Shown: in pieces, positions 12,306-16,539 of the stretch | Layout: every line of letters starts with the position of its first letter | Numbering within the stretch: the first letter of the stretch is position 1 | Origin: an uncultured Candidatus Actinomarina sp. | Lineage (GTDB): Bacteria; Actinomycetota; Acidimicrobiia; Actinomarinales; Actinomarinaceae | DNA length: 64,000 nucleotides | Reading direction: 5' to 3' | NCBI GenBank assembly: GCA_902634185.1 | Contig: CACPJC010000005.1 | Location: forward strand, 1-64,000 | Notes under the pieces: model-generated | What the model was told of the DNA's origin: nothing | What the model saw: the letters and a program-made list of their open reading frames with translations, nothing else | Databases searched by the model: none | Made by a program: the position numbers and the translations under genes

Positions 12306-12321
12306 TAGAACATTTGTTCTA
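12306..12321. promoter_or_regulatory. LexA (SOS) box upstream of recA
   Basis: Palindrome TAGAAC-ATTT-GTTCTA about 60 bp upstream of recA, overlapping the cinA stop codon. Confidence 0.88.
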
Positions 12322-13527
12322 ATACAAGTTTTTTATGAATTTAATCAATTCCCATTGAGCTTTATTTGAGGCTCTTTCTAAGATTTCTGCTCTATTTCCA
12401 TTCATTTTATGGTCTGAAATAACTGTTTTTTCTCCGTTTGAGATGCAAATAAAGATTGTTCCTACAGGGTATTTACTAGATGATATTGGTCCTGCCTCCC
12501 CTAAAATTGTAAGGGCTACGTTTGATTTGTATTTATTTAAAGATGATTCTGTAAGATTGTAAGTTAATTCTTCCCAATCATCAAAATTAATATTTTCATC
12601 ATTTAATAACAAGTTTTTAGACTCATTTGTATAAACAATGTCAGAACCAATAAAGTATTTACTTATCCCTGGATTCTTAACAAGCAATGAGGAAATCAAA
12701 CCCCCAGTGATACTTTCAACAAAAGAGATTTGAAGATTTGAGTCACTAATTAAATTTCCAAGAACTTTTTCAACTGTTATATTTTCGTAAGATAAAATAT
12801 CATCTTCAAATGTTTCACCTATTTTTTGTAGAAACATATCAGATTGATCATTTGATACAGAATTTTTATCAAATCGTAATTTAATGATCCCTTTACTTGC
12901 TAGATAAGCAATATCTAAACCTTCTGGTTTAAACTTATCTATTTCAGCAGCCAATGATGATTCTGCCTGATTAAAAAACATAACAAATTGATAGTCTGTA
13001 TTTTCTTTTTCATAATTTTTACTTAGAAAAGGAATCAACTCATCCTCAACAAGAGGTATAAACTCTCTTGGCGGTCCTGGAAAGATAAAAATGATTTTAT
13101 TGTCATGATTGATTTTTATACCAGGAGCTGTTCCCTGAGTATTGGTGAGTTTTTCACTTCCAACTGGAATATAAGCTTGCTTTATATTTGTATCAGGCAT
13201 AATTAACCCACGAGCTTTCCAGCGTTCTTTCATCCGCTCTAAATGATCATCATCTAGCTCAAGTTCCAATGATAAAGATTCAGAAATTGTTTCTTTTGTT
13301 ATATCATCTTCTGTTGGACCAAGACCTCCTGAAGTGATAACAACATCACAATCTTTAAGTAAAAAATTAAGTGCATTAATAATTTCATCTTGCTGATCTG
13401 AAATTGTAATATCTTTATCTAATTTAAACCCATTTTCATATAAACGTTTACCAAGGTTCGTTAGGTTTGTGTTGACTGTATCCCCTAGCAGTATTTCTGT
13501 ACCAATTGTTAAGAAACCAATTTTCAT
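12319..13527 (-). CDS. cinA: CinA family protein (MoCF-like plus PncC domains)
   Basis: IGTEILLG..NTN, SGGLGPTEDDIT, GTAPG, PGPP.E, ESITGG; upstream of recA. Confidence 0.93.
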   Translation of the reverse strand: MKIGFLTIGTEILLGDTVNTNLTNLGKRLYENGFKLDKDITISDQQDEIINALNFLLKDCDVVITSGGLGPTEDDITKETISESLSLELELDDDHLERMKERWKARGLIMPDTNIKQAYIPVGSEKLTNTQGTAPGIKINHDNKIIFIFPGPPREFIPLVEDELIPFLSKNYEKENTDYQFVMFFNQAESSLAAEIDKFKPEGLDIAYLASKGIIKLRFDKNSVSNDQSDMFLQKIGETFEDDILSYENITVEKVLGNLISDSNLQISFVESITGGLISSLLVKNPGISKYFIGSDIVYTNESKNLLLNDENINFDDWEELTYNLTESSLNKYKSNVALTILGEAGPISSSKYPVGTIFICISNGEKTVISDHKMNGNRAEILERASNKAQWELIKFIKNLY

Positions 13528-13574
13528 ATTTTTAGGTTAGCAATGTTTAATTTAAATATAACTATGATAAATGT

Positions 13575-14036
13575 ATGAGAAAAGCAATCATACTTTTACT
13601 TCTACTATCTTTTTGTTCATCAGGATCGGATAGTACCTCAGATGAACCAACACAAAGTGCAGCAGAATCCTCAATTGAAGAACTTGTATATGAAGATGCA
13701 AATGGAAATTTAGTAAACGAAGACCTAACTAATAAGAAAACCCTTGTTGTTTTCTGGGCTGATTATTGAGGAATTTGTAGGGAGGAGTTGCCTCTCTTAG
13801 AAGCTAATCTAGCAGCAGTTAGCCAAAACTATGATGTAATCGCATTGGCACACAGTGATGTAGATTCCACTATGACTTGGGTATCAGAAAATCTTCAAGG
13901 TGAAATCACAATTGGGTTTTCTACATCTGATATGAGAGATAGTTTAAAAATTATTGGTCAACCAATTTCCTTAATTATTGATACAGATGGCAACATTCTT
14001 TCACGAGAATATGGATACGTTCCAAACGACTTATAA
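13575..14036 (+). CDS. Thioredoxin-fold TlpA/ResA-like lipoprotein, probable selenoprotein (UxxC; Sec at TGA 13767-13769)
   Basis: Track ORFs 13575..13769 and 13788..14036 are in the same frame; read-through gives VVFWADY-U-GICREELPLLE, matching FWAxWCxxCxxExP; cis-Pro-like GQP and IIDTDG downstream; lipoprotein-like signal ending LSFC. Confidence 0.85.
13779..13797 (+). promoter_or_regulatory. Putative bacterial SECIS hairpin
   Basis: AGGGAGG(13779-85) pairs with CCTCTCT(13791-97); apical loop AGUUG begins 16 nt after the UGA. Confidence 0.7.
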
Positions 14037-14169
14037 ATTTACAAAAATTTAACCTAATACCCGAGCAGTTTCTGTCATAAATTGTACTATTTTATTAGTA
14101 TTAACCGCAGATACAATTACTGCTGCAATAAGAAATCGAATTATTAAAGGTAAAACCGTAAAGAGTTAG

Positions 14170-16539
14170 TTACTCTTCGTACCAACTATCGTCAGTCGTC
14201 TCTACTTCATCATTTATTTCTTCAGATGAATTCTCAGTTTCAGAAATTTCATTATCATCATTAATTGTGGAAAGACTATTTGTTTCGTATTCTTCAACTG
14301 TAATCAAAACTTCTCTTGCTTTTGATCCTTCAGATGGTCCAACAATTCCTTGAGATTCAAGAATATCCATTAATCTACCTGCTCTAGCAAATCCAACTCT
14401 TAGTTTTCTTTGTAACATTGAAGTAGATCCTAACTGTGATCTAACAACAAGATCTGTAGCAGTTTTAATTAATTCATCATCTTCACCTAAATCATCATCA
14501 CTGTGAACAGTTGTAGATTTTTGTTCTTCAATAACAGCAGGATTGTATTCAGCTTCTTTTTGTGACTTAACCCATGAGACTACATCTTTAATTTCTTCCT
14601 CAGTAACCCAAGCACCTTGGATTCTTTCTAATCTAGGATTTGAAGCTGTAACAATAAGCATGTCCCCAAGTCCAATTAATTTTTCAGCTCCAGACTGATC
14701 AAGAATAACTCTTGAGTCTGTTGTTGAAGCAACAGAAAATGCAAGTCTTGAAGGAATGTTTGCTTTCATTACACCAGTAATAACATCTACTGAAGGTCTT
14801 TGAGTTGCAACAACTAAATGTATTCCGATTGCTCTAGCCATTTGAGCAAGTCTTACAATTGCTGACTCTACTTCTCTACCAGCAACCATCATTAAATCAT
14901 TCAATTCATCAATGCACACAACTATGTAAGGAAATCTATCAAATTTTTCTGTATCTAATAATCCGGCATCAAATTTCTCATGATATCCATTAATGTCACG
15001 TACTTGCCCATCAGCTAATAAATCATATCTTCTATCCATTTCAGAAACAGCCCAAGTTAATGCATCAACAGCTTTCTTTGGATTTGTAATTACTTTTGTA
15101 AGTAAATGAGGTACATTGTTGTACTGACCTAGCTCAACTCTTTTTGGATCAACCATCACCATTTTTACTTCATCTGGATTAGTCCTCATTAAGAGAGATG
15201 TAACAATTGAATTAATACAGGATGATTTACCTGCACCGGTTTGACCTGCTATCAAAACGTGAGGTAGTTCAGATAAGTTGATTAGTCTTGCTTGACCTGA
15301 AATATCTAATCCAAGTCCTACATTTAAAGGATGATCTAATTTTTTCGCCTCTGGTGAGGTAAGAACATCTCCTAATGAAACAAGTCTTCTTTGTCTATTT
15401 GGAATTTCAATACCAATCGCACTTCTTCCAGGAATTGGAGCTAAAAGTCTTACATCTGGTGTAGCTAAAGCATAGGCAATGTCGTGTGAAAGCGATGTAA
15501 CTTTAGATACTTTAACACCAGGTGATAACTCAATCTCATACCTTGTGACAGTTGGTCCAGGAACAATTTTTGTTAACTCAGCTTCAACACCATGTTCTTT
15601 TAAGAGATTTTGTAAATCTGTTGCCGTTTGTTGTAAAAGTTTTTTTGAAGTAGAAACATCAGTACCCATTTTTAATAATTTCAATGGTGGAAGTACATAT
15701 TTGGATGATTTTGTATTTGGTTTTTTCGATTTAGGCAATGAAGGTTCTTTTGACTTAGGCTTCTTCGAATTAACTGATTTTTTGACTTTTTCCTTCTTCA
15801 ATGTAACAACATTATTAGTTTCAACTTCTTCTGATGGAGTTATAGTTTCAGTATTGATAAGATCAAAATTTATTTTGGAGGCCTCTCTCCTAGCTTTATA
15901 AAATGCAAAAATAAACCTATATGAGTAGACAAAAATTGCCTGAACTCCACCAATGAGATCTTTAAGTTCTATATCCGTCATATATAAAACAGAAATGATC
16001 AAACCGAATAAAAGCACAACATGGGTCATTTCTGCAGCAAGTAAATTATTTAATGGGTAAACAATGAATGCAGAAATAAAACCTCCGGATTTTTGTAGAG
16101 CAGCACTTCCAACACTTATTGATAGTGGTTCAGAGTGTATGTAAAAGTGAAATAACGCAGAAGTGAATATTTGTACCCAGATTGTTCCAATAAATACTTT
16201 TTGGGTATTTATAAAGTCTTTATCTCTTATAAGAATTGCAGCACCATAAATCAAAAGTAGAGGAAATAAATATACACCATAGCCAAACGACCATGTAAGT
16301 AAATTATTTACGAACTCTCCTATTGGACCAGCTTTGCCAAAAGAAGATAATCCTACAAGAATGCCTAAACCTGTCATAAACACAGCGACAGCTTGGTAAG
16401 ACTTAAAAAATGAACTAGTGATATTTTTTGAAGTATCTGAAATACCTCTTAGAGTTTGAGGTACTTTTATTAAATTTTTCGGTTTAGACACCCGCTTACG
16501 CCCATCAACCCTTTTGCGAGTGGATGTCTTAACAGCCAC
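14170..16539 (-). CDS. ftsK: DNA translocase FtsK
   Basis: 4TM N-terminus, GPTVTRYE, PHVLIAGQTGAGKS, DPKRVEL, ATQRPSVD, gamma domain LQRKLRVGFARAGRLMD. Confidence 0.97.
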   Translation of the reverse strand: MAVKTSTRKRVDGRKRVSKPKNLIKVPQTLRGISDTSKNITSSFFKSYQAVAVFMTGLGILVGLSSFGKAGPIGEFVNNLLTWSFGYGVYLFPLLLIYGAAILIRDKDFINTQKVFIGTIWVQIFTSALFHFYIHSEPLSISVGSAALQKSGGFISAFIVYPLNNLLAAEMTHVVLLFGLIISVLYMTDIELKDLIGGVQAIFVYSYRFIFAFYKARREASKINFDLINTETITPSEEVETNNVVTLKKEKVKKSVNSKKPKSKEPSLPKSKKPNTKSSKYVLPPLKLLKMGTDVSTSKKLLQQTATDLQNLLKEHGVEAELTKIVPGPTVTRYEIELSPGVKVSKVTSLSHDIAYALATPDVRLLAPIPGRSAIGIEIPNRQRRLVSLGDVLTSPEAKKLDHPLNVGLGLDISGQARLINLSELPHVLIAGQTGAGKSSCINSIVTSLLMRTNPDEVKMVMVDPKRVELGQYNNVPHLLTKVITNPKKAVDALTWAVSEMDRRYDLLADGQVRDINGYHEKFDAGLLDTEKFDRFPYIVVCIDELNDLMMVAGREVESAIVRLAQMARAIGIHLVVATQRPSVDVITGVMKANIPSRLAFSVASTTDSRVILDQSGAEKLIGLGDMLIVTASNPRLERIQGAWVTEEEIKDVVSWVKSQKEAEYNPAVIEEQKSTTVHSDDDLGEDDELIKTATDLVVRSQLGSTSMLQRKLRVGFARAGRLMDILESQGIVGPSEGSKAREVLITVEEYETNSLSTINDDNEISETENSSEEINDEVETTDDSWYEE

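Follow-up and report, generated by a model that had tools for sequence, protein, structure and literature searches.

A UGA-interrupted gene for a predicted TlpA/ResA-like lipoprotein of Candidatus Actinomarina as a very probable selenoprotein gene with a hairpin of SECIS type

Does the TGA that interrupts a thioredoxin-like reading frame in an uncultured Candidatus Actinomarina sp. put an end to a gene, or does it encode selenocysteine (Sec) in the middle of one? The question arises from the window, by which we mean the whole stretch of 64,000 nucleotides analysed here (contig CACPJC010000005.1, positions 1 to 64,000), which is part of an assembly of 974 kb in 16 contigs with about 32% G+C and 83% completeness (GCA_902634185.1). 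Two ORFs on its plus strand, 13575-13769 (64 amino acids) and 13788-14036 (82 amino acids), lie in one and the same frame, whose sole break is the TGA at 13767-13769. The frame is opened by the ATG at 13575 and closed by the TAA at 14034-14036, and when the TGA is read through it yields a protein of 153 amino acids with the motif VVFWADY-U-GIC-REELP around U65. The initial annotation had described a single frame broken by one TGA at the first Cys of a TlpA motif and had expected standard annotation to split the gene; both statements are borne out, as the two ORFs share their frame and translation table 11 returns pieces of 64 and 82 amino acids. The gene stands alone on the plus strand between two minus-strand ORFs of 402 (12319-13527) and 789 amino acids (14170-16539), which by eye resemble CinA and FtsK. 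The features discussed below are collected in Table 1.

Table 1. Features of the probable selenoprotein gene and of the other candidate selenoprotein genes of the genome. Positions without a contig label are those of the window.
Feature	Position	Strand	Basis
Probable selenoprotein gene, predicted TlpA/ResA-like thiol-disulfide oxidoreductase lipoprotein, 153 aa	13575..14036	+	frame, Pfam, orthologues, AF2 fold
Predicted signal peptide with lipobox-like LSFC; Cys14 (13614-13616) presumed lipidated	13575..13616	+	inspection, Cys in 29/29 orthologues
UGA for predicted selenocysteine U65, first residue of UxxC redox motif	13767..13769	+	TGA in 29/29 aligned orthologues, TGC in sister genus
Cys68, resolving Cys of UxxC	13776..13778	+	invariant alignment column C68
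Putative SECIS hairpin; stem 13779-13785/13791-13797, loop AGUUG 13786-13790	13779..13797	+	fold, covariation, absent in Cys form
Pro130 codon, conserved proline of thioredoxin-fold cis-Pro loop (GQP)	13962..13964	+	invariant column P130; conformation presumed from alignment
Membrane-anchored thioredoxin-like (GOS 'Trx-like 3'), FYSDY-U-LGC	C1:108463-108933	-	read-through screen
AhpD/CMD-like (GOS 'AhpD-like 1'), C-E-Y-U	C3:98495-99055	+	read-through screen
SelD with in-frame TGA	C7:19503-20525		read-through screen

The TGA is not unique to this genome. Orthologues that are 47-99% identical and contain one TGA each are present in 29 of 34 genomes of the genus, and in all 29, when aligned, the TGA occupies the same place in the motif FWADY-U-[GS]x-C-R-[EQR]-E-L-P-[LV]. 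A search across the order took in 61 genomes of the genus plus a single genome from a sister genus. It gave matches in 52 of the 61, each with one TGA, and in two of these the match additionally extends over a terminal TAA. Moreover, the stretch past the TGA varies like a translated frame, with entropies at the three codon positions of 0.68, 0.31 and 1.17 bits as compared to 1.01, 0.68 and 1.21 bits before it. The alternation of TGA with TGY that had been anticipated is seen in the sister genus, whose orthologue (40% identical, with a lipoprotein-type signal) has no in-frame stop and reads FWADY-C-PT-C-IRELP, with TGC at the Sec site; this is the one locus at which the Cys form is available as DNA. 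Two representatives of a library of 1.84 billion proteins likewise have Cys at this site. Among the best 120 database homologues, on the other hand, 119 show Trp in place of Sec, and the remaining one shows Cys. The entries with Trp most likely stem from gene calling under a code in which TGA is Trp, on short (0.5-4.6 kb) contigs of low G+C content, and the lone Cys record may represent either a genuine Cys form or a U that was entered as C.

Pieces that span the TGA are found in contigs of one DNA run and three RNA runs (13610-14024, 13667-14006, 13688-13811 and 13300-14086). At 13767-13769, where the reads had been regarded as informative by the initial annotation, no other letter is reported in the contigs of these four runs, three of which are metatranscriptomes from three studies. 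Contigs can demonstrate no more than presence, and DNA may be contained in RNA libraries, so that transcription is not proven by them. The RNA-library contigs leave 13538-13571 (3 runs) and 14048-14081 (2 runs) uncovered, stretches in which the DNA run continues; these gaps on either side of the gene hint, if at all, only weakly at a monocistronic transcript.

The Sec machinery that the initial annotation had implied elsewhere in the genome was found, selA, selB, selC and selD all being present together with the UGA-containing gene. A tRNA-Sec with the anticodon UCA is detected by aragorn and scores 74.6 bits with Rfam RF01852 (cut-off 47 bits). Profile searches of the genome found selA at 323 bits and, directly downstream of it, a full-length selB, whose winged-helix domain SelB-wing_3 is over its cut-off at 51 bits and which reaches 208 bits with TIGR00475, under the cut-off of 242 bits. 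The two genes lie 53 bases apart on the same strand (contig C2:65989-68756), and the low score of selB fits the 'divergent selB' mentioned in a preprint of 2026 (bioRxiv 10.64898/2026.04.03.716425). The selD gene carries an in-frame TGA of its own, at codon 12. Otherwise TGA is an ordinary stop in this genome, ending 170 of the 690 ORFs of at least 200 amino acids; the sole tRNA with a UCA anticodon that was found is tRNA-Sec, and the anticodon of tRNA-Trp is CCA.

Shortly after the TGA the sequence can form a hairpin of AGGGAGG (13779-13785), the loop AGTTG (13786-13790) and CCTCTCT (13791-13797), which is part of the minimum free energy fold. The stem of 7 bp with an AGUUG loop that had been proposed is thus present, but only its six inner pairs (13780-13785 with 13791-13796, by RNAalifold) form a conserved core, paired in all 29 orthologues, whereas the outer A-U pair is kept in 12 of 24 distinct orthologue rows. 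The spacing needs correction: the stem, said to start 16 nt from the UGA, begins 9 nt past it, and it is the loop that begins at 16 nt. An outer helix of 3 bp in the single-sequence fold is gone from the alignment fold, which has these 6 pairs only. In terms of stability, a 64-nt fold is no better than dinucleotide shuffles (z -0.09, with 86 of 200 shuffles as good). The 45 nt past the TGA fold at -13.4 kcal/mol, which is equalled by 0.4% of 4000 sampled TGA windows of the genome and by 2 of the 170 TGA stops of ORFs of at least 200 amino acids, and is thus rare in this AT-rich genome.

The stem also shows the covariation among orthologues that the initial annotation had proposed to look for, in the form of compensatory changes. 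At pair 31-43, 21 of the 29 orthologues have C-G and the other 8 have G-C, and pair 32-42 is A-U in 16, G-U in 12 and G-C in one. The covariation score is 0.285 as compared to 0.196 +/- 0.019 in shuffles and is reached by none of 500, although such shuffle-based figures overstate the effect because the compared sequences are kin; in the named structure 93% of the cells are paired, as opposed to 42-61% in slid registers. The swap between G-C and C-G comes about because the amino acids change on both arms of the stem, all 8 sequences with Glu (GAG) at +5 having Leu (CTC) at +9 and all 21 with Gln or Arg (CAG/CGG) having Val (GTC/GTT). Third-position entropy is 0.42 in the six codons of the stem-loop as compared to 1.23 elsewhere downstream, with GAG for Glu +6 in 29/29, CCT in 28/29 and GAA for Glu +11 in 24/29. 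The Cys form of the sister genus, finally, keeps R-E-L-P in codons that are unable to pair and has no hairpin (-2.7 versus -13.4 kcal/mol). Since the peptide occurs there without the stem, the stem goes with the TGA and not with the peptide, as far as this one locus can tell.

No SECIS family was found in an Rfam scan of 13500-14100 with E values up to 10, which gave only chance matches to eukaryotic snoRNAs and lncRNAs. The loop consensus AGUU[GA] is, however, common to this gene and the Trx-like 3 gene of the genus, and the hairpins of this gene, Trx-like 3 and AhpD-like 1 all have G-U as the second and third nucleotides of the loop. This G-U dinucleotide is presumably what SelB contacts, going by work on E. 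coli. Bacterial SECIS elements, as modelled for E. coli fdhF, have a window of 16-37 nt and contacts at G23/U24.

Taken together, we consider it very probable, going by the sequence evidence, that Candidatus Actinomarina has at this locus an intact selenoprotein gene, in which the UGA at 13767-13769 specifies Sec under the direction of the hairpin. SelB with Sec-tRNA(Sec) would be recruited by the hairpin at 13779-13797, the loop of which starts 16 nt past the UGA, and after insertion of Sec translation would run on to the TAA at 14034. The product would then be exported and lipid-anchored at Cys14, and Sec65 in U-G-I-C is predicted by fold and sequence to be the attacking residue of a thiol-disulfide oxidoreductase of the TlpA/ResA/DsbE type. 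The findings that the initial annotation had named as speaking against a selenoprotein were looked for as well: the genome does have the Sec machinery, the orthologues of the gene within the genus carry TGA and a conserved hairpin core, and no TGC or TGT is reported at the site in the contigs of the four runs.

But what else might the locus be? A gene broken by a nonsense mutation or a sequencing error, or two small genes, would agree with the two ORFs given by table 11, the second of which has a possible TTG start at 13788. We give such a reading practically no credence, as the TGA occurs in all 52 matches of the genus, in the 201 motif strings of the GOS data set of 2008 and in the four runs, and as the portion past the TGA shows, in the same frame, the variation of coding sequence and the fold needs both halves. 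The Trp recorded at the site in nearly all of the best 120 database homologues could be taken to mean that residue 65 is not Sec at all, the TGA being reassigned to Trp or Gly or passed by near-cognate read-through. However, those records are most simply explained as the output of gene callers on short contigs, and Trp would abolish the redox motif, at the very place where the Cys forms have Cys. Reassignment, moreover, is at odds with the regular use of TGA as a stop, with a tRNA-Trp and a single UCA tRNA of the kind described above, and with a dedicated Sec pathway in the genome, and we regard this explanation as highly improbable. There is, finally, a slim chance that Sec is inserted but that the hairpin is a mere by-product of the conserved peptide C-R-x-E-L-P and not a recoding signal. 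R-x-E-x-P after the CxxC is indeed kept in distant Cys homologues too, and the stability of the hairpin in the single sequence is unremarkable next to shuffles. Then again, the Cys orthologue encodes I-R-E-L-P without a stem, synonymous sites within the stem are suppressed, pairs of amino acids switch jointly with the base pair being kept, and the same loop is found in another selenoprotein gene.

The gene appears to have company in the genome. Read-through ORF screens returned 1649 and 375 candidates and were too noisy; barring those with a longer overlapping ORF brought the number down to 44, in a screen that covered Sec codons more than 8 codons from an end and products of at least 70 amino acids. 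Four credible selenoprotein genes emerged, namely this gene and those for Trx-like 3, for AhpD-like 1 and for SelD. Trx-like 3 is present in 29 and AhpD-like 1 in 27 of 33 genomes of the genus, both with the TGA in all, and SelD is present in 32 of 33, with the TGA (G-A/S-G-U-A-C-K) in all full-length matches. The hairpin of Trx-like 3 has 7 bp and the loop AGUU[AG], and in it a U-A pair has become C-G in 3 of 28 sequences, with a U-G intermediate in 2. AhpD-like 1 has a hairpin UCUCC-GGUC-GGAGA about 24 nt past the UGA, which is invariant except for one C/U (G-U wobble) position. For the hairpin of SelD no single register was found across the genus. The accessible part of the preprint gives the Sec form of SelD for about half of the genomes (bioRxiv 10.64898/2026.04.03.716425), a figure that may stem from grouping by the first 20 residues.

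What kind of protein would be made? The read-through product matches the Pfam families AhpC-TSA, Redoxin and Thioredoxin with E values of 3e-7 to 5e-6. An AF2 model based on a 27-row alignment has a pLDDT of 85, with values >90 for residues 34-150, and places U65 and C68 at the start of the helix 66-77; the best PDB matches by Foldseek and profile search are DsbE, ResA, Etrx1/Etrx2, DsbF, CcmG, StoA and TlpA. In the alignment with distant homologues the columns C65, C68 and P130 are invariant and the R-x-E-x-P that follows the CxxC is conserved as well. The model thus agrees with a predicted thioredoxin fold of the ResA/TlpA type that carries the UxxC at the N-terminus of helix 1. A peroxiredoxin (Prx), as the best Pfam match PF00578 might suggest, was rejected, for the motif is W-A-D-Y-U-G-I-C and is found without the T-x-x-C/U context, which in the absence of CxxC defines Prx. 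Prx (TxxU) and UxxC families are also kept apart in the table of the GOS selenoproteome paper (PMC2398784), in the part of it used here.

As to location, a basic N-terminus and a hydrophobic stretch followed by a Cys are discernible by eye in all 29 orthologues, which fits the exported lipoprotein proposed in the initial annotation, and LspA is found in the genome. Lgt was not found in this 83%-complete genome, although it is over the cut-off in 31 of 33 genomes of the genus. Lgt lies about 1.6 kb from COX2 in the relatives, and here COX2 is situated at the end of a 2.4-kb contig, so that the absence of Lgt is likely an assembly gap.

The substrate of the protein is a guess because the gene is without operon partners and lies between divergently oriented ORFs, and the genomes of its relatives have to provide the context. 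One possibility, to which we assign a real but minor chance, is that the protein is a genuine selenoprotein devoted to cytochrome c maturation, like ResA or CcmG, or to reduction of CuA/Sco, like TlpA, and not to the repair of methionine sulfoxide (MetSO). Among the solved structures nearest to the model are those of ResA, of CcmG and of TlpA, the last also in complex with CoxB and ScoI, and proteins of the CcmC/CcmF type are found in 29 and COX2 in all 33 of 33 genomes of the genus. However, ResB is found in none of the 33 genomes, and neither is SCO1/SenC over its cut-off, and a ResA-type role in System II and a Sco-dependent role were discarded on these respective grounds. Moreover, 7 genomes contain a further ORF of about 170 amino acids, weak in similarity, with no in-frame stop and about 2 kb from ccmF, which is likelier to be CcmG than is the Sec lipoprotein. 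The Sec lipoprotein may, even so, act in reducing the CuA site of CoxB.

The reading that we put forward instead, repair of MetSO, starts from MsrA. A signal with a lipobox-like [LFI][FIV][STA]C is present in 26 of 27 MsrA sequences of the genus, the 27th being cut by a contig end, and MsrA of this genome (contig C2:87555-88160) starts with a lipoprotein-type signal, so that by its sequence the MsrA of the genus looks like an exported lipoprotein; MsrB is a 126-amino-acid frame without signal extension. An exported MsrA needs an exported reductant, and the Sec lipoprotein is our best candidate for it, though with minor odds. The membrane electron carrier CcdA, which is found in 26 of 33 genomes of the genus and was not found in this 83%-complete one, would keep the Sec lipoprotein reduced, and the latter would in turn reduce oxidised envelope proteins at the surface, most plausibly the lipoprotein MsrA. 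By analogy with the pneumococcal CcdA-Etrx-MsrAB2 system, which such an arrangement would resemble, we tentatively suggest that the protein may be a CcdA-reduced surface reductant of this kind. The full scheme is more speculative still: a surface chain leading from CcdA via the Sec-redoxin to lipoprotein MsrA that would carry out selenium-dependent repair of MetSO in the envelope, combined with a SECIS stem that couples the residues at +5 (E/Q/R) and +9 (L/V). The genome also encodes a Cys-type Redoxin/AhpC-TSA paralogue (WCGYC), whose gene overlaps one of the DsbB family by 8 bases beside a bacteriorhodopsin-like gene (C3:171751-173598); this paralogue and DsbB probably are the oxidising disulfide-bond pair of the organism.

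Predicted selenoproteins of this kind have been in print for some time. The GOS selenoproteome of 2008 (Zhang and Gladyshev, PLoS Genet; PMC2398784) lists, in the part available, 'Trx-like 1' (COG0526, UxxC, 321 selenoproteins), and its supplementary file 3 contains under '#Trx-like 1' reads with VVFWADYUGICREELPLLE. This file has the string FWADYU 201 times, a 27-residue stretch across Sec of the very variant encoded by our gene 22 times, FYSDYU (Trx-like 3) 172 times and NECEYU (AhpD-like 1) 164 times (PMC2398784). Judged by its sequence, the Actinomarina protein is a member of 'Trx-like 1' and as such a predicted selenoprotein since 2008, of a sort that is ordinary among marine bacteria. 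The entries of that family, however, are anonymous reads without an organism, and those portions of the paper that we draw on contain no hairpin analysis, lipoprotein reading, Cys sister form or genomic context. UxxC Prx-like, thioredoxin and thiol-disulfide isomerase-like families already appear in the 2005 Sargasso paper, as far as its accessible part goes. As for the organism, the preprint 'Actinomarina, resolved' (bioRxiv 10.64898/2026.04.03.716425) covers 84 complete genomes and reports for them, in the parts at hand, selC, selA and selD along with a divergent selB, about 5 selenoproteins per genome predicted by deep-Sep, and a SelD with Sec. Its search with Rfam models yielded no SECIS, and it terms most families uncharacterised; its main text uses neither the word 'thioredoxin' nor 'TlpA', and the gene may be in its tables.

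What our work adds is a SECIS consensus for the genus, the sister form with Cys and no hairpin, and the suggested CcdA/MsrA context. Its value lies mainly in annotation: table 11 splits a gene that almost all Actinomarina genomes possess, and public protein collections mostly record Trp at its catalytic residue (119 of the best 120 homologues), which amounts to a systematic mistranslation. In addition, an anonymous and abundant selenoprotein family of the GOS set of 2008 is tied to its organism. The proposed surface redox repair under light offers a testable idea of why a 1-Mb genome keeps a whole Sec pathway, and if it is true, repair of MetSO in the envelope of a photoheterotroph that ranks among the most abundant in the ocean would depend on selenium.

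How does the putative selenoprotein compare with known systems? With the E. coli fdhF SECIS and the bSECISearch model its hairpin shares the position directly 3' of the UGA within coding sequence and a small apical loop with a G followed by a U; it differs in that its loop is the pentaloop AGUU[GA] and that a bulged U is not discernible. With ResA of B. subtilis, TlpA of B. japonicum and CcmG/DsbE of E. coli the protein shares, in its model, the thioredoxin fold with its family insertions (Foldseek E 2.5e-9 to 1e-7, TM 0.61-0.67; profile matches E 1e-24 to 1e-12), the pattern W-x-x-x-[C/U]-x-x-C-R-x-E-x-P and the Pro loop. Different from these, however, it has a predicted Sec in place of the attacking Cys, D-Y and not the usual S/T-W before the active site and, by prediction, a lipid anchor and not a transmembrane anchor, and its gene is apart from ccm, res and cox genes. 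In S. pneumoniae, the partners of the Etrx proteins are CcdA and MsrAB2. Etrx (PDB 2yp6) of this organism is the best profile match (E value 1.8e-24), aligned along its full length with the signal peptide included, and by fold Etrx1/Etrx2 (PDB 4hqs, 4hqz, 2yp6) rank 8, 26 and 32. The Etrx proteins are lipoproteins, as is predicted here, but they use Cys where the Actinomarina protein would use Sec, and Actinomarina, like the pneumococcus, has both CcdA and an MsrA of exported type alongside.
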